In this document: positions 9,442-24,825 of the stretch, piece by piece
Layout: each line of letters begins with the position of its first letter
How positions within the stretch are numbered: position 1 is the stretch's first letter
Source of the DNA: Aquifex aeolicus VF5
GTDB taxonomy: Bacteria; Aquificota; Aquificia; Aquificales; Aquificaceae
NCBI RefSeq assembly: GCF_000008625.1
Contig: NC_000918.1
Location: 510,001-542,000 of the forward strand
DNA: 32,000 nucleotides
Reading direction: 5' to 3'
The notes under the pieces: generated by a model
Seen by the model: only the letters and a program-made list of their open reading frames with translations
Database searches by the model: none
What the model was told of the DNA's origin: nothing
Program-made: the position numbers and the translations under genes

Positions 9442-10167
9442 TTAAAGTAAAACTTTTTCTAAGTGAAGGCCCTGAGGCGGAGCGGTGTAAGGAGAGTTTC
9501 CCTTTCCTTGGAGTAGTTCCTCCAGTACTTCTTCCGAATAGAGTCCCAAGGAAATCTTGACGGCCGTTCCCACGATTCTTCTCACCATATACCTCAAAAA
9601 ATGAGAAGCCTTTAGCCTTATTTCTATTAGAGGGTATTCCACATTCAAACTTACCTCTTCAAGGTTTATTACTGTGTTCCTTTCCTCTTCCAATTTTGTA
9701 AGAGCTCTGAAGTCGTGAGTTCCTTCAAACTTCTTAAGGATATTTCTAAGGACTTCCGTATTTATTTCCCTTTTTACCTGCCATGAAAAAGGATAAAGGA
9801 AGGGATTTCTCACTTCTGAGTTCCATATCTTATACAGGTAAACCTTCCCTTTTACGGAATAGCGTGCGTTGAATTCTTCGGAAACTTTCTTAACCGCGTA
9901 AACTCCTACGTCTTTGGGAAGAATTCCGTTTAGGGCTTTTAGCAATTTTTCCTCTGGAAAGTCCTTCTGGGTTTTGAAGTTTGCAATGTAATCTAGAGCG
10001 TGGACACCGGAATCGGTTCTGCAGCAGCCTGTCACTTTAACGTCTTCACACAGAATTTGGGAAAGAGCCTTCTGAATTTCTCCCTGAACGGTTCTTAAGT
10101 TCGGTTGAACTTGCCATCCGTAAAAGTTTGTACCAACGAAAGCGAGGCGAAGGAGGTAATTAGGCAT
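9442..10167 (-). CDS. truA: tRNA pseudouridine(38-40) synthase
   Basis: [20 protein letters not shown]-terminus; catalytic [10 protein letters not shown]; RYMVRRIVG. Confidence 0.9.
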
Positions 10168-11122
10168 GCTTTTTCAGTTCTTCCTTTATCCTCTCTATAG
10201 TTTTCACGGGAACGGGATCGTAACCATAGAGTTCTGCAAGGAATACACTTACCCAGTCCGCAAGGTGCACCAGGTAAAGACTTCTCGCAAGGTAAGAGTT
10301 TCCTTCTCCTTTGAGCATTATCGGAACTACTCCGAAATCCTCCAGAATTTTTTTCGTTATATCCACCCTCAGCTTTACCCTGTGGTGGTCCTTTTCGTCG
10401 AACATCAAAAGGTAAACGAACTTATTTCTGAGTTCAGGATTGCTCCAGCCCATGACTTCGTTGTGGTGCATCTCGGGAAGAATGGTAAAGTAAGCAGGGG
10501 ATTTTGAGTTTTCGTTTATCTGTCCTTTCCACCTTTCCGCTATGTGGGCAGTTAAAGGCGTGGAGTAAACCACTGGAATGTATCCGTAAATCCTGTTCGC
10601 TATTTCCTTGCCTTTCTGTTTTAAGCTTTCAAGGTTTTCCTTGAGGTTCTCCTTTGCATCTTCAAGCTCGTCTTTATCAACTCCGAGGAGGTTCAGAACT
10701 TTGGAGAGCATAAACCCGAGGGAGTATCTTGGTTGAAAACCCTTTGGAACCTCGTAAATCTCGCAGCCCTCTTCCTTTGCCCTTTCCATTAACTTGCCGT
10801 TTGAAGTAATACATAAGGGCTTTATTCCCCTCCCTATAGCTTCCTCAAAGTTGGAGAGGGTTTCTTCAGTATTACCGCTGTAGCTGATACAAAAAACGAG
10901 ATAGTCCCTATCTACAAAGGGAGGAAGTGTGTAGTCTTTCACTACAAAAGTGGGTTTATTAAAACTTCTGTGTTCCAGCCACTTGCTCGCAAAACTTCCT
11001 ATTATTCCGCTCCCTCCCATTCCGCAAAAGACTATACCTTTGTAGGGGGTGAGGTCCTTAGCTATGTCTTCCCACTCAAACTGGTTGTAAAATCCCTCCA
11101 CCACTTTGTAAACTTCTTCCAT
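10160..11122 (-). CDS. SIS-domain bifunctional phosphoglucose/phosphomannose isomerase (PGI/PMI family)
   Basis: About 320 aa. FCGMGGSGIIGSF and ISYSGNTEET SIS motifs; C-terminal PEMHHNEVMGW motif. The length and layout match the short archaeal-type PGI/PMI rather than classical Pgi. Confidence 0.7.
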   Translation of the reverse strand: MEEVYKVVEGFYNQFEWEDIAKDLTPYKGIVFCGMGGSGIIGSFASKWLEHRSFNKPTFVVKDYTLPPFVDRDYLVFCISYSGNTEETLSNFEEAIGRGIKPLCITSNGKLMERAKEEGCEIYEVPKGFQPRYSLGFMLSKVLNLLGVDKDELEDAKENLKENLESLKQKGKEIANRIYGYIPVVYSTPLTAHIAERWKGQINENSKSPAYFTILPEMHHNEVMGWSNPELRNKFVYLLMFDEKDHHRVKLRVDITKKILEDFGVVPIMLKGEGNSYLARSLYLVHLADWVSVFLAELYGYDPVPVKTIERIKEELKKHA

Positions 11123-11155
11123 GGGAAAAATTATAAGGGGAAAGAAGAGAAAAGA

Positions 11156-13126
11156 TTAAACTTCTTCTACGGGAGTCTTTTGTATTTCTTCTACCGCCTT
11201 TAGGAGTGCGAGTCCGGACTTGTGGAGAGAGTTCTGTCCCAGTATGCCTATGAGTCTCAGGAGAGAAAGTTCGTTTAAGAATGTTTCGTGGTCAAGTCCC
11301 GTCATCTTTTCTACTTCCTCAAACTGTTTTGGGAGAATCCTCACCTTTTCTTCCTTTACGTAAAGGTTTCCTACCTTGGATATGGCTTCCACAATTCTGT
11401 ACATGAAGGGGTTTACAGGGTTGCCGAGTCCTTCGGGAACGGAGGATACAGCTTCCTTTATGAGTTCTCCTGCCTTTGTGAGAACGAGTCCTTCATTAGG
11501 AAGGACGTCCAGAAATCCTCTTGCCTGAAGTTTTTCAACCGCGAGGTGAACTTCCTCTTTCATAACTTCGTCGAATTCCTTGAAGAGTTCACTCAGGAAC
11601 ATTCCCGCTTTTGGTATCTTATGGAGAACCATGAGTTCAAACCTTGTGAGGTGTGGCTTTCTCTTTATGGTGTATGCGAGCTCAGAGTACAGCCTTCCGC
11701 TGTCAGTGGGTGCTCCCGTTCTCACGAGTACCTCATCTACAGCCTGCTTGTACCACTCGTAATTGGGGGCCATAAACTCCCTCTTTGTTATTGTGATAGC
11801 CTTAACACCGGTGGCGGTGATATCCCTTATTCCGTGCTTTTCAAGGTCCTCCAGAACTTTTTTGCCGTGCTCCGTGGGAACGTAATAAAGTTCTCCCTTT
11901 TCTGTGAGCTCAGTCGTTATTAAGTCAAAAGACTCAAGTGAATAAAGGGCTTCCGTAACCAGATCCATCATCTTCTTGTACCACTCTCCGCCCTTTTCGT
12001 AGAAGTGTTTGAAAAGCTCTTCAACGGTTTTTAGTTCCTGGAATTTTTTCTTTATTTCTTCTTTCTTCTTGTAATTAAAGTCCTGATTTATCTTCCTTCC
12101 GTAGTATTCAACGAGGTGTTTGTACTCCTTTAGGGGTCTCAGTAGCATTTCCCTGACTATTTCCTCTTTAGTGGGTAAGGGTCCAGCCTGTTCCTGGTGT
12201 TTCTTGAGGAGTTTGTCTATCGTTTTCAGTATTTCTTCCTCAAAGACTTCAAGGTTGAAGGTTCTGTAGAAGGGGTAGCTCTTCTTTTTCCAGAGTTTGT
12301 AAACTTCGAGGAGTTTTTCGCCTGCGGGAAGAAGGTTTCCTTGGTCGTCAAAGAGTCCGAGCGCGTACATAACTTCTTGTCCCGCTTCGGGAAGTTTTTG
12401 TATTCCCTCGTCAAGGGCGGTTACGAAGTCCTCCAGAATGTCTTCCGATATAAGTGTGTCTAAACTGAAGGGCATAACCCTCAGGGTTTGCTCCACCGCC
12501 TGACCGAGTCCCGTCAGGGCGTATACGTCGGAGTTGGGAACTGAAAAGGCTATGAGTCTCATGGACTCAAGGAGCAGGGGAAAGTGTTTTCCTTCAGGGA
12601 GCATACTCTTTTCTGCGGGACCAGGAGGCATCTTCCTTATATATTCCGCAAGCTCCCGTGAGATTTCCAGTTTAGGCGTTATCTCGTTGTAAATTTCGTA
12701 AACGGCTTTTGCGTATTCATTTACGGTCTTTATCTTTCCTTTCTTTTCCACTTCCACTTCTTCTAAAAAGCCCCTTTCCATTAGGGCGTGCTCTATCTTC
12801 TCTCCCGGTCTGCCGTCGTTGAGGATTGTGGAGTGTATCATGCTGATTATTTCCGAGCCTATCCACCTGAAGTGCTCGTCCCAGTTCTCTGGGTGCGGAA
12901 TGTAACCCTTGTCTATCATCTCGTGGAGGAGGTTCACGAGAGCCTCACCCCAGTAGGTAAGGGTGTACTCGAGGGGTTTTTCAAGCCTCACTAAGTTCTG
13001 AAACTCAAGTTCTAAGAAAACTTCTTCTTCTCTCGTTTTTTCCGCAACCTTGTAAGTAGGTTCTCCTCTTTCTTTTGCTTCCTTTACAGCTAGGAGTGCC
13101 AGAGCGTGTTCCCTCATTATAATCAT
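11156..13126 (-). CDS. hypothetical 656-aa protein made of repeated winged-helix-like modules (last gene of prefoldin-like operon)
   Basis: Long ORF with an ATGA overlap to the upstream gene. It has repeated '(L/P)T..G..hh' wing/helix signatures (TLTYWGEALVNLL, ALTGLGQAVEQTL, LLPAGEKLLEVY, VPTEHGKKVLEDL, LVLTKAGELIKEA, LHKSGLALLKAVEE). Confidence 0.85.
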   Translation of the reverse strand: MIIMREHALALLAVKEAKERGEPTYKVAEKTREEEVFLELEFQNLVRLEKPLEYTLTYWGEALVNLLHEMIDKGYIPHPENWDEHFRWIGSEIISMIHSTILNDGRPGEKIEHALMERGFLEEVEVEKKGKIKTVNEYAKAVYEIYNEITPKLEISRELAEYIRKMPPGPAEKSMLPEGKHFPLLLESMRLIAFSVPNSDVYALTGLGQAVEQTLRVMPFSLDTLISEDILEDFVTALDEGIQKLPEAGQEVMYALGLFDDQGNLLPAGEKLLEVYKLWKKKSYPFYRTFNLEVFEEEILKTIDKLLKKHQEQAGPLPTKEEIVREMLLRPLKEYKHLVEYYGRKINQDFNYKKKEEIKKKFQELKTVEELFKHFYEKGGEWYKKMMDLVTEALYSLESFDLITTELTEKGELYYVPTEHGKKVLEDLEKHGIRDITATGVKAITITKREFMAPNYEWYKQAVDEVLVRTGAPTDSGRLYSELAYTIKRKPHLTRFELMVLHKIPKAGMFLSELFKEFDEVMKEEVHLAVEKLQARGFLDVLPNEGLVLTKAGELIKEAVSSVPEGLGNPVNPFMYRIVEAISKVGNLYVKEEKVRILPKQFEEVEKMTGLDHETFLNELSLLRLIGILGQNSLHKSGLALLKAVEEIQKTPVEEV

Positions 13127-13422
13127 TTGCCTTCACCTCCGAACATTTTTAATTCATCCTCTATGAGTTTTTGGGCTTCTTCCTTGCTCACTTCCACGTA
13201 AAGTTTCCCCACGAGGTAGTAAAACTTCCTGTTTGAGTCAAACTTCTCAAGGGCTTCCTTTGCGAGCTTCAGCTCTTTCTCCATTATATCCCTCTCAAGG
13301 GCTTCCAAAAGCTCAATTGCTTCCTTTACCTTTTCCTCCCTTATGTAGCCCTCTTCCGCTCTGCTCCTTTGCTCAAGGGCTCCTTTTAAAAGGTTTGTTA
13401 TGGCTTTTAATCTCTCAAGCAT
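13123..13422 (-). CDS. prefoldin-beta-like coiled-coil protein, C-terminally short (99 aa)
   Basis: GGAGGTG SD 7 nt upstream. About 60-residue heptad helix, then the beta-hairpin-like KFYYLVGKLYVEVSKEEAQKLIEDEL, which resembles the prefoldin beta core (vYk.vG.vlv.v.keea...l). Confidence 0.6.
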   Translation of the reverse strand: MLERLKAITNLLKGALEQRSRAEEGYIREEKVKEAIELLEALERDIMEKELKLAKEALEKFDSNRKFYYLVGKLYVEVSKEEAQKLIEDELKMFGGEGK

Positions 13423-14143
13423 CTTTCTTCACCTCCGTCCAGCCTGCTGTTTTTTTCTCGGAAGGAACGTAAATAACACTTCTCGGTCTGATATCAAGTC
13501 GGTAAAGTCTCCTTATTCTGTTTCTTATCTCCTTGTCCCCCCAGAACCAGAAGAGTCGGCCTCCGAAGGGGGCTGTGGTCCAAAAGCCTACTCTTAAAGG
13601 GATTTCCCAGTTTTTCATTTCAGAGAGGAGGTTTTTATGGAATATCTCACCTATCGGGTGGTCACGAACGAGCGTAAGTTCCGCGTGGGCGAGGGCTTCC
13701 GCGTAGGAGTGGCATGCGGACCTTAGTTTCTCGTAGTTATTTGCTTTAACTTCAAACTCCGCTACACCCTCAAACACTTCACTCTTGAAGTAGTCCTTAA
13801 AATCCTTCCTCTTCAAGTCGTAAACTTCTACCACCTTTTCCTTAATCCCTTCGGAAGACAGGTAAACCTTTTCGGGAACTTCTATACTTTCTATAAACTC
13901 TTTTTCCGCTTCAAATACCATTTTTTCTATTTCCCTCACGAATTTTCTGAGGGAGGTTCTTTTGTGCCTTTTTACGTAGTTCTTTACCTTCGTGTTTAGA
14001 GCTTTGTCCTTTTTCAGGAAGTAGTAAACGAGAGCGTCTTTTATAGCCTCTTTTATTTCACTTCCGGGAATGAATTTCTTACCGTTTTCTTCGGGAAATT
14101 TCTTAGAAGAGAGGAGAACGGGACTCCATGCAAGCAACTTCAT
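13415..14143 (-). CDS. hypothetical 242-aa protein with Cas RAMP-like motifs
   Basis: GGAGG SD and a 4-nt overlap with the upstream gene. N-terminal WSPVLLSS...[17 protein letters not shown] (compare RAMP tPl.iG...IPGSSlKGalR); glycine-rich [15 protein letters not shown]; C-terminal AGWTEV. Confidence 0.8.
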
Positions 14144-14829
14144 TTGAATTCCTCCAGTGCGGTGTTTGCCTTTTCTGAAATATCTATGTCAAAAAGGGCT
14201 ATCGTGGGAAGGAGCCAGGACACCCTGAAGCGGTTGTCCTTTTCTCTAGTCTTTCCGAAGTAAGCGAGGGCTACCCTTCCGAAGCCCGCCATCTTTTCTA
14301 CCTTCTTAGCTCTTTCAAGGAAATCCCTGGCAACCAAGGGAAGTTTTTTGTAGGGGAGCGGAAGGCTTTCTCTTCCCCTTTGTTTGTAGAATTCCGTAAT
14401 GACACCCACGCTCTTTAGGTTGTTGGCGAGCTCATGGAGTCTGTGTTTTTTGAAGAACGCCATCAAGAGTGTTGGGGCGGGGGTTCTCAGAATTTCAAGA
14501 TTTTCTTTTCCTTCTCTCAGCTCCGCTACTATATAGGCCACACCCTCACTCGTCTCTATGTGGGCGAATAACTTTTTATTCTCTGGAAGTTCAAGGAGTA
14601 TTTCTTCTATTTCATACGTAGCCCCTCCCTCCTCCCACTTATCCCCAACCTCCCTGCCTGCTTGTGAAGCAAAAAAGGTTCGAACGCCGTTTTTCTTTCC
14701 GAGTATCAAGTCAAAGCCCCACCTTCTCAAATCCTGTATTGTAAACTCCCTTTCCTTCTCAGGTTGTCCCAATGTTTCAAAGACGAGTGTGTTTAGGGCT
14801 ATCTTTTCTACGAGTTCCTTTTTATCCAT
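14140..14829 (-). CDS. hypothetical 229-aa soluble protein
   Basis: GAGGTG SD. Overlaps both neighbours. No family recognised by eye. C-terminal G-rich segment [13 protein letters not shown]. Confidence 0.8.
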
Positions 14830-15361
14830 TTAGGCTCACCTCTTCGTTTATGCGTGCCATCAGGTAATTCGCGGTTATTTCAAGGGCAAACACAAAGAGC
14901 GTTATCACCGCAGCTCCCCAGAAAGCACCCTCAAAGTAGTTCCCTATGGTAAGAGCTCCGAGGAGGTCAAACTTAGAAAGGAGCATTATGATGAGCATGA
15001 GTGTGAAAATTCCGTAGTAAGCGTACCTGTAGTAATCAAGTCCCGCAAGCCACAGGGCTAAAAGTGCAGGAATGGATAGGTTTTCGGTTCTCTCTACTGG
15101 TTCGTTTGTTTTTTTTGCAAGTTCTCTTCTGTCTATTTCTTTGTTGGTGAGAAAAGCTTCCGCGGTAATTACAAAACTCCCGTAACCGAAGAGGAGTTTA
15201 TTTGCAAACACAAGAGCCCCCAGAAATCCGAGTAAAAACGCAAAACCTTCGGGTGTTAGTACTACGAGGAGAGTTGATACGAATATCCCGGTAAAGGCGA
15301 AAAAGAGAAGTGTCGCAAAGAGTATTACAAGTATCCATTGGGATACACTTTCAGCCTTCAT
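14822..15361 (-). CDS. hypothetical polytopic membrane protein (about 5-6 TM)
   Basis: AGGAGGAG SD and an ATGA overlap. Long hydrophobic stretches are separated by a charged loop ([20 protein letters not shown]). Confidence 0.8.
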
Positions 15362-15855
15362 TTACTCTCCTCCTTTTTCTCTTCCTTCTTTTCCGTCTGT
15401 TGTTTTTCCTTAACTCCGTAAGTGAAGGGGTGAACAACCGTGTATATGTCCTGTGAAAGTGGGTGCGTGTATGTGAATGTGGCGACTACGAGGTCCCCAA
15501 CTTTCAACTTTTCCGTTCCCTCTTTTAGCTTTAGCTCAACTATGGCAACGCTGAGAGGTGGAATTGTAACGTTTGCGGGAATGTTTGAAAGAACGTATCC
15601 CTTTTCTTTACTTTCCTTTCCAGGGGTAAAAACAAAGGCCTTTTCGGTAATTTTTATTGGGAGTGTTCCGGGATTGGATATGGTGTAGGCTATAAGGTGT
15701 TTCTCCTTATTATAGGTAGCACTCAGAACTATGGGGGAGCCGGGAATGTTTTGAAATTGTTTGAGGAGTTTTGAAGAGGTAAAGTAAGAGCCGACCCCAC
15801 CTCCCACGAGGAGGCCAGCCAAGGCTATCATCGTTCCTATCACAAAGTACCTCAT
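15358..15855 (-). CDS. hypothetical membrane-anchored protein with beta-rich ectodomain and K/E-rich tail
   Basis: GGAGGAGG SD. N-terminal TM anchor MRYFVIGTMIALAGLLVGGGVGSYF, then a beta-strand-patterned domain of about 110 aa, then the [17 protein letters not shown] tail. Confidence 0.8.
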   Translation of the reverse strand: MRYFVIGTMIALAGLLVGGGVGSYFTSSKLLKQFQNIPGSPIVLSATYNKEKHLIAYTISNPGTLPIKITEKAFVFTPGKESKEKGYVLSNIPANVTIPPLSVAIVELKLKEGTEKLKVGDLVVATFTYTHPLSQDIYTVVHPFTYGVKEKQQTEKKEEKKEESK

Positions 15856-16304
15856 TATTTTTTAGCCTCCTCCTGTCCAACTTTTCTTACTTCTTCGAGA
15901 AGTTCTTCAATTTTGTTGTAGAGATCGGCTATCGCTTCCTCAAGTGCCCTCCTTAGAGCTTCCAGAGCTGCTATTTCCTTTCTTATCCTGTCTACCGCCT
16001 CGTCGTAGCTCATTACCGCGGATATTCCCGTTCCTATGCTCATTATCACCTCGTCAACGCCTTCACTCTTTGCCTTTATCTGTGCGGTAGCTCCTACGGG
16101 TATGAGCACTTCTTTACCCTTTCCGAGTTCCTTTAAGCTTCTTAGAGTAGCTTCTGCGGTTCTGAGGTCCGTTATGGATTGATTGATAACGGAAATTTCA
16201 GCCCTGAGGGCTTCAATGTTAGCCATGTAACCCCTGAGCTGTCTGTTTAGCTCATCCATTTTTTGCTCAGGAGTTTTTTGAACTTCCTTCTTCTCTTCTG
16301 CCAT
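15855..16304 (-). CDS. pfdA: prefoldin alpha subunit-like protein (archaeal GimC-alpha type)
   Basis: Coiled coil, then a double beta-hairpin core KEVLIPVGATAQIKAKSEGVDEVIMSIGTGISAVMSYDEAV, then a second coiled coil, as in archaeal PfdA. The ORF track starts at GTG 16313, but GGAGG (16314-16318) sits 9 nt upstream of ATG 16304, which I prefer. Confidence 0.8.
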   Translation of the reverse strand: MAEEKKEVQKTPEQKMDELNRQLRGYMANIEALRAEISVINQSITDLRTAEATLRSLKELGKGKEVLIPVGATAQIKAKSEGVDEVIMSIGTGISAVMSYDEAVDRIRKEIAALEALRRALEEAIADLYNKIEELLEEVRKVGQEEAKK

Positions 16305-16340
16305 CTTACCCACCTCCTATTAAGGTTTACATATAATTTT

Positions 16341-16368
16341 ATTATATTCCTTTTAAAAATTTTTGCAA
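16341..16368 (-). promoter_or_regulatory. candidate sigma70-type promoter of the prefoldin-like operon
   Basis: On the minus strand: -35 TTGCAA (16368-16363), 16-nt spacer, perfect -10 TATAAT (16346-16341). This gives a leader of about 30 nt to the ATG at 16304. Confidence 0.45.
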
Positions 16369-16374
16369 TAATTC

Positions 16375-16404
16375 TTATCATAAAACTTTATAAAATTGTA
16401 TTAA
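16375..16404 (+). promoter_or_regulatory. weak candidate promoter for mnmG
   Basis: TTATCA (16375-16380), 18-nt spacer, TATTAA (16399-16404), in the AT-rich divergent spacer. Confidence 0.2.
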
Positions 16405-16456
16405 GACTTTGTCCCATACACTATTTTGCTAAAGAGGCTAAATTCTATTAATTGCG

Positions 16457-18310
16457 ATGGCTTGGGTAGTTGACGAGTTTGACGTGGTAGTTATAGGAGG
16501 CGGACACGCTGGGATAGAGGCAGCCCTTGCGGCAGCGAGAATGGGCGCAAAGACAGCGATGTTCGTTCTGAACGCGGATACCATAGGACAGATGTCCTGC
16601 AACCCCGCAATAGGAGGAATAGCAAAGGGAATAGTGGTAAGGGAGATAGACGCCCTCGGGGGAGAGATGGGAAAGGCTATAGACCAGACGGGTATTCAGT
16701 TCAAGATGCTGAATACGAGAAAGGGAAAAGCAGTCCAGTCTCCGAGAGCTCAGGCGGACAAAAAACGCTACAGGGAGTACATGAAAAAGGTATGTGAAAA
16801 TCAGGAAAACCTTTACATAAAACAGGAAGAAGTTGTGGACATAATAGTGAAGAACAATCAAGTTGTGGGTGTAAGGACGAACCTCGGAGTTGAGTACAAA
16901 ACGAAAGCGGTTGTCGTGACTACGGGAACCTTTCTGAACGGCGTTATATACATAGGCGACAAGATGATACCCGGGGGAAGGCTCGGAGAACCGAGAAGCG
17001 AAGGGCTTTCCGACTTTTACAGGAGATTTGATTTTCCCCTAATACGCTTTAAGACTGGAACGCCCGCGAGACTTGACAAGAGAACCATAGACTTTTCCGC
17101 TCTAGAAGTAGCTCCCGGAGACGACCCGCCCCCTAAGTTTTCCTTCTGGACCGAGCCCGTGGGCTCTTACTGGTTCCCTAAAGGAAAAGAACAGGTAAAC
17201 TGCTGGATTACGTATACGACTCCCAAAACCCACGAAATTATCAGGAAGAACCTCCACAGAACGGCCCTTTACGGCGGTCTCATTAAGGGAATAGGACCAA
17301 GGTACTGCCCCTCAATTGAGGACAAGATAGTGAAGTTCCCCGACAAGGAGAGACACCAGATATTCCTAGAGCCCGAAGGTCTGGACACAATAGAAATATA
17401 CCCGAACGGACTCTCCACTTCTTTACCCGAAGAGGTCCAGTGGGAGATGTACCGCTCAATCCCCGGACTTGAAAACGTAGTCCTAATCAGACCCGCTTAC
17501 GCCATAGAGTACGACGTTGTTCCGCCCACAGAACTTTACCCAACTCTTGAGACGAAAAAGATAAGGGGTCTCTTCCACGCGGGTAATTTCAACGGAACTA
17601 CGGGATACGAGGAAGCAGCAGGTCAAGGAATAGTGGCGGGAATAAACGCAGCCCTCAGAGCTTTCGGAAAAGAGCCCATATACCTGAGAAGGGACGAGAG
17701 CTACATAGGCGTTATGATAGATGACCTCACGACTAAAGGAGTTACGGAACCCTACAGACTCTTTACCTCCCGTTCTGAATACAGGCTGTATATAAGGCAG
17801 GATAACGCAATACTTAGACTAGCAAAGCTCGGAAGGGAACTCGGACTCCTCAGTGAGGAGCAGTATAAACTCGTAAAAGAACTCGAAAGGGAAATAGAGA
17901 AGTGGAAGGAGTTTTACAAGAGCGAAAGGGTAAGCGTTGCGGTGGGAGGAGACACGAGGAGTTACAGCGTTGCCACACTAATGACCATGAACTACACCCT
18001 TGACGATGTAAAAGAGAAGTTCGGATACGAAGTGCCCCAGCACCCTTACGTAAAAGAAGAAGTGGAAATCCAGCTAAAGTACGAGCCCTACATAGAGAGG
18101 GAGAGGAAATTAAACGAAAAGTTAAAGAAACTTGAAGACACGAAAATACCACCCGACATTGATTACGACAAAATCCCGGGTCTTACGAAAGAGGCGAGGG
18201 AAAAACTTAAGAAATTCAAACCCATAACCGTAGGTCAGGCCTCCAGAATTGACGGAATTACGCCCGCAGCGATAACGGCACTACTCGTTTACCTCGGAAA
18301 GTTAGACTGA
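16457..18310 (+). CDS. mnmG: tRNA uridine 5-carboxymethylaminomethyl modification enzyme MnmG (GidA)
   Basis: DVVVIGGGHAGIEAA FAD motif; SCNPAIGG; GPRYCPSIEDK; YAIEYD; C-terminal GQASRIDGITPAA. Confidence 0.95.
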   Translation: MAWVVDEFDVVVIGGGHAGIEAALAAARMGAKTAMFVLNADTIGQMSCNPAIGGIAKGIVVREIDALGGEMGKAIDQTGIQFKMLNTRKGKAVQSPRAQADKKRYREYMKKVCENQENLYIKQEEVVDIIVKNNQVVGVRTNLGVEYKTKAVVVTTGTFLNGVIYIGDKMIPGGRLGEPRSEGLSDFYRRFDFPLIRFKTGTPARLDKRTIDFSALEVAPGDDPPPKFSFWTEPVGSYWFPKGKEQVNCWITYTTPKTHEIIRKNLHRTALYGGLIKGIGPRYCPSIEDKIVKFPDKERHQIFLEPEGLDTIEIYPNGLSTSLPEEVQWEMYRSIPGLENVVLIRPAYAIEYDVVPPTELYPTLETKKIRGLFHAGNFNGTTGYEEAAGQGIVAGINAALRAFGKEPIYLRRDESYIGVMIDDLTTKGVTEPYRLFTSRSEYRLYIRQDNAILRLAKLGRELGLLSEEQYKLVKELEREIEKWKEFYKSERVSVAVGGDTRSYSVATLMTMNYTLDDVKEKFGYEVPQHPYVKEEVEIQLKYEPYIERERKLNEKLKKLEDTKIPPDIDYDKIPGLTKEAREKLKKFKPITVGQASRIDGITPAAITALLVYLGKLD

Positions 18311-19975: not shown

Positions 19976-21418
19976 ATGTTTGGACTTGCCTTACTGATAA
20001 ACACTTTCTTTTTAGTTTTCAGAGTCCTTTACGTGCTTTTTTACCCCGTAGACCTCTCTCCGGAAGAGGCCCAGTACTGGGACTGGTCGAGACACCTTGA
20101 CCTCAGTTACTACTCTAAACCTCCAATGGTAGCCTACATGAACTTTTTGTCAACGCACGTCTTTGGAAATACAGAACTCGGAGTCAGGATAAACGCCATA
20201 CTTCTTTCTTTTCTGCTTTCCCTGATTACCTACTTCTTTGCCAAGAAGCTATTTTCCGAAAAGGTAGCATTTGTAGCCTCAGTTGTTCCCAATTTATTCA
20301 CAGGATTTTCAATAAACTCAGTCCTCTTTACAACAGATTCCCCTCTCATTTTCTTCTGGGCACTTTCTGTAATTTCCTTCTACTTTGCGATAGAAAAAAA
20401 TACCTTGAGCCTATGGATTTTGACGGGTGTTTTTTCGGGTCTTGCGTTCCTGAGCAAATACCCCGCTGTATTCCTCCTTCCCTTAGGGATTCTCTACCTT
20501 TATCTCACGAAAAAGGAACTTTTAAAAGATTTAAAGATATTCTCCTCTGTTCTGGTAGCCTTTTTAATTGCCCTTCCCGTTCTCATATGGAACGCAAAGC
20601 ATGATTTTATCTCCTTCAAGCATGTCAGCAACCTGGCACAAAAGCACGCCCACTTCCCGAACTTTTCTACCTTTTTTGAGTACTTGGGAGGACAGGTTTT
20701 ACTGCTCTCGGTCATTCCCTTCTTCTTCGTTTTATACGGTTGGGTAAGAACTTTTAAGGAAAGAAACAAAAGACTTATATTTTTAACCACTTTCTCCCTG
20801 CCGGTTTTCCTGTTTTTTGCTTTTCTTTCTCTGAAAAAGAGGGTTTACGCTAACTGGGCTGGGTTCGGATACTACACGGCTTCAATACTCTTTGCCTACT
20901 ACTTTTTAAAATCACCTAAATCTTTGAAATTTCTAACCTTAATCCTCTCTGCATTTTTAACCCTTCTCTTACACTTCACACCTTTGTTTGATTACCTCGG
21001 CTTGAGAAATCTCCTTCCTCCCAAAAGGGATCCCGCAAAGTTATTAGTAGGCTGGGAAGATCTCGGAAAGGAAGTTGGAAGGTTTTACACGGGGAAAGAA
21101 CTTATATTCTCAACCGCTTACCAGATTTCCGCGGAGCTCGCCTTTTACGTTCCGGGAAATCCGAGAACTTACGTTTTTCACGTAAACAGGTACACCCAGT
21201 ACTACCTCTGGAGGGAAGGACTGAAAAACTTCAAGGGTAAAGATGCCGTATTCGTGAGCTACGGAGGCGTCCCGAAGGAAGTTATGAGAAGTTTTGAAGG
21301 AAAAGAGTTTTTAAAGGAAGTGAGGGTGGTGTGGAGAAACCAGGTTGTAAGAAAGTTTTATATTTATAAACTGAAAAACTTTAAGGGCGAGTTTTATGAA
21401 AATCCCAAGGGGTATTAA
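19976..21418 (+). CDS. GT-C fold glycosyltransferase family 39 (ArnT/PMT-like) membrane protein
   Basis: 480 aa with about 10-12 TM. N-terminal loop YPVDLSPEEAQYWDWSRHLDLSYYSKPPM is typical of ArnT/PMT_2 enzymes. Confidence 0.8.
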   Translation: MFGLALLINTFFLVFRVLYVLFYPVDLSPEEAQYWDWSRHLDLSYYSKPPMVAYMNFLSTHVFGNTELGVRINAILLSFLLSLITYFFAKKLFSEKVAFVASVVPNLFTGFSINSVLFTTDSPLIFFWALSVISFYFAIEKNTLSLWILTGVFSGLAFLSKYPAVFLLPLGILYLYLTKKELLKDLKIFSSVLVAFLIALPVLIWNAKHDFISFKHVSNLAQKHAHFPNFSTFFEYLGGQVLLLSVIPFFFVLYGWVRTFKERNKRLIFLTTFSLPVFLFFAFLSLKKRVYANWAGFGYYTASILFAYYFLKSPKSLKFLTLILSAFLTLLLHFTPLFDYLGLRNLLPPKRDPAKLLVGWEDLGKEVGRFYTGKELIFSTAYQISAELAFYVPGNPRTYVFHVNRYTQYYLWREGLKNFKGKDAVFVSYGGVPKEVMRSFEGKEFLKEVRVVWRNQVVRKFYIYKLKNFKGEFYENPKGY

Positions 21419-22250
21419 GATCATCTTGAGATGGGTTGTCACTCTTTACATTTATGGCTTTATCCTTTACCAGATAACGCCCTTTTCTTACTTTGAAACC
21501 TACATTCCCGAAGAGAGACTCGCTCCCAAGCCTTACGTTGAAAGGATTTTTTACCTTTTCGGCGTAAAGTCAAATGAGTACCCGTCAAAAGAGGTTCTTG
21601 AATTCTTAAAAAGCATGGACGTGGATCTCGTTTACGGATTTTTTCCTTTTGAAGATTACGGGATATTTAAGAATTCTTTAAAGGCTCCGGAATGTCACTT
21701 AATCTACACCTCGGAAATTTCTACTTTTCACAGGATTTTGAACTTTCTTTTTGATTACGTTCCCAAAAAGATAACGGGGAATGAAACGAGAACCTTTCAT
21801 TACTTCATTAAGCCTAAGTTAGGCAAGTGCAACGTAATAGTTCAGGACGTTTACCTTTCACCAAACTTTTTAGACTTCAAACTTGATCACTCTAGAAACA
21901 TGGTTTACAAAAGGCTCTGGGAGGATTTACAGCTGGAACAGAACGTAATTACAAACGGGAGGAAAAGCGTTGACGTTTACGCTTACTCAACGAAAAGTAT
22001 GTATTATCCTAGCGAAAGCACAATATACCCCTTTAAACTCTACGCAAAGAGTAACGAAGAAAAAACCTTAATAATCGTTTACAGGGACGGAAAAGTTTAC
22101 AGGATTTACGACGAAAGGAGCACAGTTTTGAAAATTAATAAACCCGGAAAGTACTCCGTAAAGATACTCACTTACGCCTTTTCGTGGGAGGGGTATTACT
22201 TCGGCCTCAGGACGATTGCTTACTCCGCACCGATAACCCTTTTATATTAA
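21396..22250 (+). CDS. hypothetical protein with N-terminal TM anchor
   Basis: 284-aa ORF overlapping the GT39 3' end by 23 nt. TM segment IKIILRWVVTLYIYGFILYQI. No recognisable motif. Confidence 0.65.
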   Translation: MKIPRGIKIILRWVVTLYIYGFILYQITPFSYFETYIPEERLAPKPYVERIFYLFGVKSNEYPSKEVLEFLKSMDVDLVYGFFPFEDYGIFKNSLKAPECHLIYTSEISTFHRILNFLFDYVPKKITGNETRTFHYFIKPKLGKCNVIVQDVYLSPNFLDFKLDHSRNMVYKRLWEDLQLEQNVITNGRKSVDVYAYSTKSMYYPSESTIYPFKLYAKSNEEKTLIIVYRDGKVYRIYDERSTVLKINKPGKYSVKILTYAFSWEGYYFGLRTIAYSAPITLLY

Positions 22251-23977: not shown

Positions 23978-24436
23978 ATGTTTAGTATGACCGGTTTCGG
24001 AAAAGGAGAAGCAGAAAGCGAAAACTGGAAAGTCACCGTTATGATGCGTTCCCTTAATGGGAAGGGACTGGACGTATCCCTGAGAATGCCACCCTTCTTA
24101 ATGCCTATGGAGCTTGAACTAAAGAACGAAATAAAGAAACACCTTCGCAGGGGAACGGTAACGGTTTACATAGACCTTGAACAAAAAGTGGTAAAACCAC
24201 CCATTGACGTTGAAAAATTAAAGGCGAACGTTGAGATGTTAAGGGAACTCTCAAACTCCGTTGGACTTTCTCCCACCGACGACAAAATCCTTGACTACGC
24301 TTGGAGGTATTCGGAAAAAGCGGAAATAGAACTGGACGAAGAACTTAAAAATGTCGTAATGGAAGCCCTGAGGAAGGCTATACAGGAACTCCTTGAGAGC
24401 AGAAAGAAGGAAGGGGAGCACTTAAAAAAGATTTAA
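23978..24436 (+). CDS. yicC: YicC-family protein, N-terminal (YicC_N) part; the reading frame is interrupted
   Basis: MFSMTGFGKGE...SLNGKGLDVSLRMP...RRGTVTVYIDLE is the canonical YicC N-domain. The ORF stops 2 codons after an A_AAA_AAG heptamer. Confidence 0.85.
   Translation: MFSMTGFGKGEAESENWKVTVMMRSLNGKGLDVSLRMPPFLMPMELELKNEIKKHLRRGTVTVYIDLEQKVVKPPIDVEKLKANVEMLRELSNSVGLSPTDDKILDYAWRYSEKAEIELDEELKNVVMEALRKAIQELLESRKKEGEHLKKI
24424..24430 (+). other. in-frame A_AAA_AAG heptamer at the yicC frame break (candidate -1 recoding site or homopolymer indel)
   Basis: The zero frame reads tta aaa aag att taa. Shifting -1 after AAG reads gat tta acg gag..., which continues into the YicC C-domain ORF. 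Confidence 0.4.
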
Positions 24437-24465: not shown

Positions 24466-24825
24466 GTGAACGTTCTGGACAGGAAGAAGGAGGAGTTCAA
24501 GGAAAGGATAAAAGAGAGAGTTCTGGAGAGGGCAAAGGCACTGAACCTTCCCGAAGAACACCCGACGGTTTTAAACGAACTCATGTTTTTGCTTGAGAAG
24601 TACGACGTTAATGAGGAAGTTCAGAGACTGAAAGCTCACGTAGAACGCTTTAAAAAACTCCTTGAGAGTGAAGGAGAAGTTGGAAAGAAGCTTGAATTTC
24701 TTGCACAGGAGATGCACAGGGAAATAACTACTCTTGGGAACAAAATTCCCGACTTTTCCGAGTACACGGTTGAAGTCAAAGCTGAGATTGACAAGATAAA
24801 GCAACAGGCTGCAAACGTGGAATAA
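24466..24825 (+). CDS. yicC: YicC-family protein, C-terminal (DUF1732) part, in the -1 frame relative to the N-terminal part
   Basis: EKYDVNEEVQRLKAHV...VGKKLEFLAQEMHREITTLGNK...QQAANVE matches the conserved YicC C-terminus. The frame is open upstream to 24430. Confidence 0.85.
   Translation: MNVLDRKKEEFKERIKERVLERAKALNLPEEHPTVLNELMFLLEKYDVNEEVQRLKAHVERFKKLLESEGEVGKKLEFLAQEMHREITTLGNKIPDFSEYTVEVKAEIDKIKQQAANVE

Follow-up and report, generated by a model that had tools for sequence, protein, structure and literature searches.

Canonical archaeal prefoldin is an alpha2-beta4 hexamer that feeds the group II chaperonin. Bacteria are not known to have a group II chaperonin that could act as a partner for prefoldin. 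A different kind of subunit is the gamma-prefoldin (gamma-PFD; PfdA2, MJ0648) of Methanocaldococcus jannaschii, which is described as assembling with itself and not with alpha or beta subunits, builds filaments in vitro and in cells, and is induced 26-fold by lethal heat shock; its authors call it a unique chaperone of M. jannaschii whose cellular role is unknown to them (PMC11117396). In Escherichia coli, YfdX1, YfdX2, and HdeD make up the cell-envelope stress module of the tLST island, and each of them is required for heat resistance (PMC8290217). The type III-A (Csm) effector complex, which is guided by CRISPR RNA and has the RAMP protein Csm5 as a subunit, needs Cas10/Csm1 together with Csm2, Csm3, and Csm4. 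Here we describe an operon of seven genes (g1 to g7) from Aquifex aeolicus VF5, six of which belong to a gene module found in vent and hot-spring organisms. The operon lies in a stretch of 32,000 nucleotides (NC_000918.1, positions 510,001 to 542,000), which is called the window below and whose numbering is used throughout. We read the module as a thermophile-specific, membrane-associated device for thermotolerance and proteostasis that is anchored on the UPF0128 protein, and we give this reading a probability of about 0.38. The features of the operon are as follows.

16341..16368, minus strand: candidate sigma-70-type promoter, TTGCAA-16 nt-TATAAT (consensus match)
15855..16313, minus strand: g1, predicted gamma-prefoldin orthologue (PF02996, TIGR00293, similarity to 6vy1)
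15358..15855, minus strand: g2 (TM1), bitopic membrane protein (hydropathy)
14822..15361, minus strand: g3 (MEM), polytopic membrane protein (hydropathy)
14140..14829, minus strand: g4, UPF0128 protein (PF03673, TIGR00703)
13415..14143, minus strand: g5, compact Csm5-like RAMP of 242 aa (predicted fold and profile)
13123..13422, minus strand: g6, predicted mini beta-prefoldin (PF01920)
11156..13126, minus strand: g7, DUF505 protein of 656 aa (PF04458)

Conservation of the gene module

The conserved unit consists of six genes and is anchored on the UPF0128-RAMP pair. One genome per GTDB species was scanned for UPF0128, the open reading frames (ORFs) of each locus were labeled by tblastn and iterated hidden Markov models (HMMs), and genes were counted when they were adjacent and on the same strand. 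In the best 80 of 136 loci, the other families were found near UPF0128 as follows.

RAMP: 44 of 80 loci
gamma-PFD-like protein: 35 of 80 loci
mini-beta: 34 of 80 loci
MEM: 29 of 80 loci
TM1: 26 of 80 loci
DUF505: 4 of 80 loci (5 of all 81 scanned, counting a solitary copy in L001)

Without DUF505, the six families are kept together in Aquificota, WOR-3, Thermodesulfobacteriota, and Campylobacterota, and this same set occurs in at least eight different gene orders. Arrangements of the module genes (U128, UPF0128; gPFD, gamma-PFD; miniB, mini-beta) include the following.

U128-RAMP-gPFD-miniB-TM1-MEM: Desulfurobacteriaceae, WOR-3
U128-RAMP-gPFD-miniB-YfdX-TM1-MEM-DUF1931-UPF0114: Persephonella
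gPFD-U128-RAMP-miniB: L037
gPFD-U128-RAMP-PfdB-TM1-MEM-DUF1931: L085
YfdX-TM1-MEM-U128-RAMP: WOR-3, L058
U128-RAMP-TM1-MEM: L018
gPFD-TM1-MEM-U128-RAMP-miniB-DUF505 (the Aquifex order): only L002, L003

The repeated reshuffling of the genes with retention of the set strongly indicates selection for co-expression. An earlier note on this DNA, made from the letters of the window, had described an operon of seven genes that starts with a prefoldin gene. Six of the families do recur together in several phyla and many orders, but DUF505 is mostly solitary elsewhere, the gene order of Aquifex is specific to its lineage, and the UPF0128-RAMP pair, not prefoldin, is the anchor. The neighborhood does not dissolve outside this strain, as the 80 UPF0128 loci and the 71 loci of a reciprocal scan show. 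This second scan was anchored on RAMP and made in metagenomes; with a shallow alignment it gave nothing, and a broader alignment gave the 71 loci. Upstream DNA is long enough for a call in 41 loci, and in 35 of these UPF0128 immediately precedes RAMP; on the downstream side, gamma-PFD comes next in 30 of 62. A separate observation concerns L090:1016-5587, where about 3 kb with four ORFs splits UPF0128 from RAMP, which are otherwise almost always adjacent.

Both bacteria and archaea carry the module, but only those from vents and hot springs. The named hosts of UPF0128 all come from hydrothermal vents or hot springs. Among bacteria they are all three Aquificota families, WOR-3, Thermodesulfobacteriota, Calditrichia, Campylobacterota (Nitratiruptor), and Methylothermaceae, and among archaea they are Archaeoglobaceae and Thermoproteota. 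The genes that flank the module in other genomes are housekeeping genes, syntenic within families.

In Aquifex the seven genes are chained on the minus strand between 11156 and 16313. Read base by base from g1 to g7, the stop and start codons overlap by 1, 4, 8, 4, 8, and 4 nt, and a GGAGG, GGAGGTG, or GAGGTG Shine-Dalgarno (SD) motif lies 5-10 nt upstream of every start codon. These coordinates, junctions, and ribosome-binding motifs bear out what the earlier note had said about translational coupling. One transcript, with proteins made in roughly stoichiometric amounts, is what the promoter-like site and the overlap coupling of the ORFs predict. Because seven genes are chained and six of them are co-conserved elsewhere, a chance arrangement is excluded.

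Prefoldin subunits

By sequence comparison, g1 is an orthologue of the filament-forming gamma-PFD and not a canonical alpha subunit. It matches PF02996 with 98.3 bits (gathering score 23.2, E=3.7e-28) over model positions 1-119 of 120 and TIGR00293 with 96.5 bits (cut-off 53.9). Its description as prefoldin-alpha-like thus holds at the level of the family, but it is not a generic alpha subunit. In the PDB the sequence nearest to g1 is that of prefoldin alpha 2 (gamma-PFD) from M. jannaschii (6vy1; 131 aligned aa, 47% identity, 110 bits), whereas the canonical alpha subunits 1fxk_C and 2zdi_C reach 52 bits (30% identity) and 42 bits. The same is true of the module-linked prefoldins, all 35 of which are nearer to gamma-PFD (median 50% identity, 118 bits) than to canonical alpha (47 bits). 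The M. jannaschii protein resembles g1 in its length of about 150 aa and its full-length PF02996 architecture. It is described as acting without alpha or beta partners, while g1 is bacterial, and its family occurs widely in Aquificota and in other taxa from vents and is encoded by genes that usually precede a mini-beta gene in an operon with UPF0128, RAMP, and the membrane proteins.

The second prefoldin, g6, is predicted to be a beta-prefoldin that has the N-terminal helix and the beta-hairpin and lacks the C-terminal coiled-coil helix. It matches PF01920 with 29.9 bits (gathering score 27.6), and residues 49-91 correspond to model positions 29-71 of 106. The absence of the C-terminal helix follows from this partial alignment and from the end of the protein 8 residues later, and it fits the truncated beta subunit proposed earlier. 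Canonical prefoldin beta has two coiled-coil helices around one beta-hairpin, and g6 departs from this; with the NCBIfam beta-subunit model TIGR02338 it scores 15.6 bits, below the cut-off of 73. It is related to the g1 family (hhalign, E=2.4e-4). Orthologues of g6 are often only 50-66 aa long, and most loci with a mini-beta gene have it directly 3' of the gene for gamma-PFD. The operon holds both Pfam families of canonical prefoldin, PF02996 in g1 and PF01920 in g6, but g1 groups with gamma-PFD instead of the alpha subunits.

UPF0128 and the Csm5-like RAMP

The most conserved part of the module is UPF0128. The g4 protein is a clear full-length member of this family, with 352.7 bits against PF03673 (gathering score 21) and 381.6 bits against TIGR00703 (cut-off 155.4), and it is cytoplasmic and mildly basic. 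The family is small: 5.8 billion proteins hold only about 133 clusters of it at 90% identity. Identity is 50-65% among Aquifex, other bacterial phyla, and Methanocaldococcus, whose species M. jannaschii has the orthologue MJ1463. Pfam and NCBIfam give no function for it; here it is the anchor of a conserved gene module. The median isoelectric point (pI) is 8.7 both for UPF0128 and for the RAMP family, so that both are mildly basic. No relationship between UPF0128 and RAMP is detectable by hhalign.

The predicted fold of g4 has no solved structural relative. The AlphaFold2 model, built from 65 sequences, has a pLDDT of 95.8 and a pTM of 0.90. A Foldseek search of the PDB with this model gave nothing at E<=0.001, with TM-scores of at most 0.19 relative to the query (TMq) and at most 0.28 relative to the target (TMt). 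The viral structures of BFVD gave no meaningful match (TMt <=0.39), and TMq over both databases was at most 0.23. The fold matches of lowest E-value (PilM, IclR-LBD, and Hsp70-like fragments) and those of highest TM-score (small fragments such as Pur-alpha and SsgB) were treated as noise. Searches of PDB sequences with the UPF0128 profile and the g4 sequence gave nothing useful.

Judged by its predicted fold, g5 is a RAMP, and fold and profile together place it in a very small, compact, non-CRISPR offshoot of Csm5. Its AlphaFold2 model has a pLDDT of 79.5 and a pTM of 0.82 from an alignment of only 8 sequences. The leading Foldseek matches in the PDB are all Csm5 chains, mostly with probability 1.0, with E-values of 6e-5 to 7e-4 for the best and TMq of 0.48-0.60; 6ldn (E 6.0e-5) and 6o7e_Y (E 6.4e-5, TMq 0.60) head the list, each with probability 1.0. 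The earlier note's RAMP-like assignment is in line with this. By sequence the PDB gives only weak matches, again to Csm5. The Csm5 model TIGR01899 gives 27.8 bits over positions 100-176 of 364, below its cut-off of 38.3, and the PADLOC models give E-values of about 1e-6 for Csm5 and a weak match to Csm3. In the other direction, the g5-family profile found 42 proteins among 1.84 billion representatives. About 30 of these are family members of about 240 aa, and the weakest are proteins of 290-400 aa that pass the Csm5 equivalog model. Because the profile reaches bona fide Csm5 proteins, g5 can be placed in a compact offshoot of them.

The g5 family differs from Csm5 in its context as well as in its size. 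Remote homology holds both ways and the fold is the same, but Csm5 has 290-400 aa and g5 about 240 aa. The family has never been seen with Cas10, Csm2-4, Cas6, or a CRISPR array, and its fixed partner is UPF0128. Searches of Pfam, NCBIfam, and PADLOC found no Cas10, Csm2-4, or Cas6 among the seven products, so the partners that a type III-A effector needs are absent from the operon, and its flanks are housekeeping genes. Conserved residues of the family are R184, G186, W188, F200, W201, K204, R207, G234, and W235. The segment P182-L-R184-x-G186-x-W188 ... F200-W201 ... G234-W235 may be the glycine-rich loop that RAMPs have near the C-terminus. A possible metal-binding ladder, H145/E149/H153/H162, was rejected; it is kept in the closest homologues and not across the 70-member family.

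Membrane proteins and DUF505

Two membrane proteins belong to the module. Hydropathy agrees with the earlier description of g2 as a beta-rich protein with a single transmembrane (TM) helix and of g3 as polytopic. In g2 the TM helix is N-terminal (about residues 3-23) and is followed by some 120 aa of beta-rich domain and a tail rich in Lys and Glu, and g3 has 4-5 TM segments with a charged loop at about residues 63-94. Neither g2 and g3 nor ten TM1 and MEM orthologues match a Pfam family, even at E<=10, and neither g2 nor g3 matches an NCBIfam or PADLOC family. The g2 gene is immediately 5' of the g3 gene in all loci that hold both. MEM is immediately 5' of UPF0128 in four metagenome-assembled genomes (MAGs) labeled WOR-3 or Thermotogota (L038, L040, L042, L045), and in several lineages UPF0128 is directly 3' of a small polytopic membrane gene, either MEM or DUF308. 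Searches with hhalign detected no relationship of MEM to DUF308 or UPF0114, or of TM1 to YfdX. An 'NPG' motif in the g2 beta domain is reminiscent of WHy/LEA_2 domains, but no HMM backs such an assignment, and we do not make it.

DUF505 is an accessory, lineage-specific addition and is outside the core. The g7 protein is a clear full-length member of the family (844 bits against PF04458, model positions 1-622 of 622) and is acidic, with a pI of 5.4; as with UPF0128, the libraries give no function. In sequence it is 100% identical to the DUF505 protein recorded for A. aeolicus. It may be made of several winged-helix-like modules, as suggested by sub-threshold matches to HTH_45, HxlR, and HTH_67, faint HxlR matches in homologues, and weak internal repeats at residues ~40-81, ~186-241, ~368-439, and ~511-586 (best hhalign E 2e-4). 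These weak signals are what speaks for several winged helix-turn-helix (wHTH) domains, as in the multi-winged-helix protein of the earlier note; the family is DUF505. A search of PDB sequences with g7 gave nothing useful. No relationship between DUF505 and DUF1931 is detectable by hhalign.

The gene is solitary in Desulfurobacterium thermolithotrophum, Persephonella, and another member of the Aquificaceae. It adjoins the module only in the Aquifex lineage (L002 and L003) and in two unrelated MAGs, L057 and L064. The first of these is archaeal and has the order wHTH-U128-DUF505-x-gPFD-miniB; in the second, from Kapaibacterium, DUF505 is divergent from U128-RAMP-YfdX. DUF505 and UPF0128 are both rare families, and that they have come to lie side by side three times independently suggests a functional connection. 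Beside the solitary DUF505 gene of Persephonella sp. KM09-Lau-8 (L157:8259-9662) are genes for an IS605 OrfB/TnpB protein (Cas12f-like TNB) and a ribbon-helix-helix antitoxin-like protein.

Neighboring genes and links to heat resistance

Additional neighbors point to the cell envelope and to heat resistance. Clustering of neighbors combined with Pfam searches found YfdX (PF10938), which carries a signal peptide, in 18 loci. An HdeD-like membrane protein of the DUF308 family (PF03729) is found in 8, the histone-fold protein DUF1931 (PF09123) in 8, and UPF0114 in 5. Methylomarinovum tepidoasis, a thermophilic methanotroph of the Gammaproteobacteria, has a compact triad of DUF308 (HdeD-like), UPF0128, and YfdX without RAMP or prefoldin (L084:6418-8646), which shares both of its envelope families with the tLST module. 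DUF308 precedes UPF0128 with gaps of 4-17 nt in Calditrichia and Methylothermaceae MAGs, and a YfdX-DUF308 pair is divergent from UPF0128 in MAGs labeled Thermodesulfobacteriota, Desulfobacterales, and Deltaproteobacteria. The likeness to tLST is a neighborhood link only. That island has no UPF0128, RAMP, or prefoldin, and uses sHSP20, ClpK/ClpG, FtsH, and DegP. Taken together, gamma-PFD and the YfdX and HdeD neighbors tie UPF0128 by neighborhood to a filamentous holdase induced by heat as well as to an envelope module for heat resistance. The YfdX/HdeD neighbors are a functional lead that goes beyond the first reading of this DNA. As a separate observation, DUF1931 and a UPF0114/YqhA-type membrane protein recur 3' of MEM in Hydrogenothermaceae and in one member of the Aquificaceae (L023, L027, L039, L056, L085, and others). 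HMMs from related loci found neither DUF1931 nor UPF0114 in the Aquifex window.

A promoter-like box also recurs in other genomes. The -35 box AAAAAACTTGACA (consensus CTTGACA) is found upstream of the module in 21 of 60 regions drawn from L004-L081, for example in L023, L034, and L047. It is 50-95 nt before the first gene and is followed about 17 nt downstream by an AT-rich -10 element. As an 8-mer it occurs in 20 loci, compared with at most 11 in shuffled sequence. The pattern suggests a strong consensus promoter, which would be consistent with high expression.

Proposed function and alternatives

If the module is a thermotolerance and proteostasis device, it would protect proteins at the cytoplasmic membrane and the envelope, and its parts might work as follows. 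The g1 protein would polymerize through its beta-hairpins into filaments, and the protruding coiled coils would hold non-native proteins. The g6 protein would insert into or cap the beta-sheet spine of the filament and so set its length or link it to partners. The assembly would be localized by g2 and g3 as an inner-membrane pair, which in sister genomes periplasmic YfdX and the HdeD-like membrane protein might join or replace. The basic UPF0128-RAMP pair would be the invariant cytoplasmic core, docked on the membrane component, and the RAMP fold suggests that it could bind single-stranded RNA; mRNA and nascent-chain complexes at the membrane would be examples. DUF505 would be an acidic scaffold or regulator added in Aquifex.

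Several observations weigh against this proposal. The link to heat is guilt by association with gamma-PFD and YfdX/HdeD, and a role in proteostasis leaves the Csm5-like RAMP and UPF0128, the most conserved part, without an obvious job; the biochemical task of this core is the weakest point of the model. UPF0128 is solitary in 20 of the 80 loci, many of them archaeal, which implies a primary function independent of the chaperone and membrane genes. The g2 domain could lie on either side of the membrane. In the Aquifex window, HMMs from related loci found neither YfdX nor HdeD-like DUF308, and a search for the CIRCE operator (TTAGCACTC-N9-GAGTGCTAA, up to 5 mismatches) found none upstream of the module in any locus. 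The two locus sets are not independent, since several RAMP-anchored contigs are from the same assemblies as MAG loci. Many loci are MAGs from a few vent studies, and their phylum labels may hold binning errors.

Another explanation, which we regard as unlikely overall, is that UPF0128 and RAMP are the functional core and bind, protect, process, or localize a specific RNA, or single-stranded nucleic acid more generally, at high temperature, with the prefoldin, membrane, DUF505, and DUF1931 proteins as accessories. The pair is the most widespread and tightest sub-unit of the module, occurring alone in 9 loci and often with gaps of 0-20 nt. Its g5 member is homologous to a subunit of an RNA-guided complex, both families are mildly basic, the neighbors include the histone-fold DUF1931 and, in three lineages, the HTH-containing DUF505, and the cross-domain identity of UPF0128 suggests a conserved universal ligand. 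However, the window has no CRISPR array (TRF), no match to an Rfam family, and no conserved non-coding RNA. UPF0128 has no recognizable nucleic-acid-binding fold (matches to Pur-alpha and Whirly-like proteins have TM-scores below 0.3), the His/Glu ladder of g5 is not family-wide, and DUF505 is acidic. The persistent linkage to membrane and periplasmic proteins is also left unexplained. The linkage of the genes could instead be fortuitous packaging in Aquifex, which is known for mixed-function operons, so that only pairs such as g1/g6, g2/g3, and g4/g5 cooperate. Separate sub-modules do exist (UPF0128 alone, UPF0128-RAMP, UPF0128-TM1-MEM, and DUF308-UPF0128), DUF505 is usually elsewhere in the genome, and the gamma-PFD of M. 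jannaschii assembles without alpha or beta subunits. We nevertheless think packaging improbable, for the six families have been re-assembled in at least eight orders, which is a classical signature of selection for co-expression and not inherited synteny, and in Aquifex the stop and start codons overlap.

Even more improbable is an undescribed defense system of type III CRISPR-Cas descent, acting against phages or by abortive infection, in which RAMP and the wHTH protein would sense nucleic acid and g2/g3 would disrupt the membrane. The Csm5-like RAMP could belong to such a system, and small membrane proteins are common defense effectors. Outside Aquificota the module is patchy and shows signs of having passed horizontally from phylum to phylum, and in L085 defense-like AAA_16, PLD, and DUF87 genes lie about 2-3 kb downstream. 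On the other hand, comparison with known anti-phage systems (PADLOC-DB 2.0) gave coiled-coil noise for g1, the weak Csm5/Csm3 matches for g5, and none for g2, g3, g4, and g6. Cas10, Csm2-4, Cas6, and an array are missing, and no enzymatic effector domain (nuclease, ATPase, or other) was detected. With 50-65% identity across domains, UPF0128 evolves at the slow pace of core genes, which is atypical of defense genes. All three families of Aquificota have the module, in stable surroundings of housekeeping genes, and tblastn found no copy of UPF0128 on plasmids or phages and no copy of RAMP on phages.

Novelty and significance of the module

On available evidence, no known kind of system has the composition of this module. 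The earlier note knew of no characterized pathway, CRISPR-Cas subtype, or defense system of such a composition, and Pfam, NCBIfam, and PADLOC agree. Profile searches of all seven proteins did name some of them, g4 as UPF0128, g7 as DUF505, and the two prefoldins, but gave no characterized system. In the open-access literature nothing was found on UPF0128, DUF505, or the gene combination; older papers on hyperthermophile COGs could mention some of the genes. Apparent matches for 'DUF505' in Haloferax papers are to DUF5059, a result of word-start matching.

Few gene systems besides reverse gyrase are known to be specifically tied to thermophily. It is a realistic prospect, though short of an even chance, that UPF0128, the non-CRISPR Csm5-type RAMP, the filamentous gamma-PFD with its capping mini-beta, and the membrane pair form one physical, thermophile-specific machine and an unrecognized determinant of high-temperature life. 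If so, gamma-prefoldin, which is widely used as a nanomaterial scaffold, would gain its first cellular and genomic context and testable partners. A protein of the Cas7 family, rarely seen working outside CRISPR immunity, would be either an exaptation or a relic of a pre-CRISPR type III ancestor, and a Csm5-like RAMP outside CRISPR-Cas would bear on the origin of type III effector subunits. UPF0128, with its predicted fold without a solved relative, would become a high-confidence target for structural and functional work. The module would also connect to the YfdX/HdeD envelope module behind the extreme heat resistance of food-borne E. coli.

Transcription signals and surroundings of the operon

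The candidate promoter TTGCAA-16-TATAAT (16368..16341) matches 10 of 12 consensus positions and is the top sigma-70-type candidate within 10000-17000. The earlier note's near-consensus promoter is therefore present as a sequence, but such matches as a class are no commoner in the region than in shuffled sequence, and its use by g1-g7 is plausible but unproven. It sits inside a 143-nt region common to the operon and the divergent mnmG/gidA gene. The start of g1 is either GTG at 16313 (152 aa), as in the mechanical ORF list, or ATG at 16304 (149 aa), which has the better-placed SD, AGGAGGTG.

The operon ends with g7. A 33-nt gap (11123-11155) separates it from a PGI/PMI-type isomerase gene on the same strand (10160-11122), which has no SD and has TATAAT 8 nt before its ATG. 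This suggests that the isomerase gene has its own promoter and a leader that is very short or absent. The flanks on both sides are housekeeping genes, among them mnmG, a class II aminoacyl-tRNA synthetase-like gene, truA, a polyprenyl synthase gene, purD, and type II/IV secretion genes.

A few other features were noted. About 2-3 kb downstream of the module of the Aquificota locus L085, an AAA_16/SH3 ATPase and a PLD-DUF87 protein are encoded at L085:11889-14693; the pair has a defense-like look and is judged unrelated to the module. In the Aquifex window a YicC-like endoribonuclease is represented by two plus-strand ORFs 29 nt apart, one for the N-terminal region (23978-24436, 152 aa) and one for the C-terminal region (24466-24825, 119 aa). 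Either the gene is split, or a normally single gene is interrupted by a frameshift or a stop. An ORF of 284 aa at 21396-22250 on the plus strand has no Pfam family at E<=1e-5, and its neighbors encode a PMT_2-type glycosyltransferase and a LigT-like 2',5' RNA ligase/phosphoesterase.

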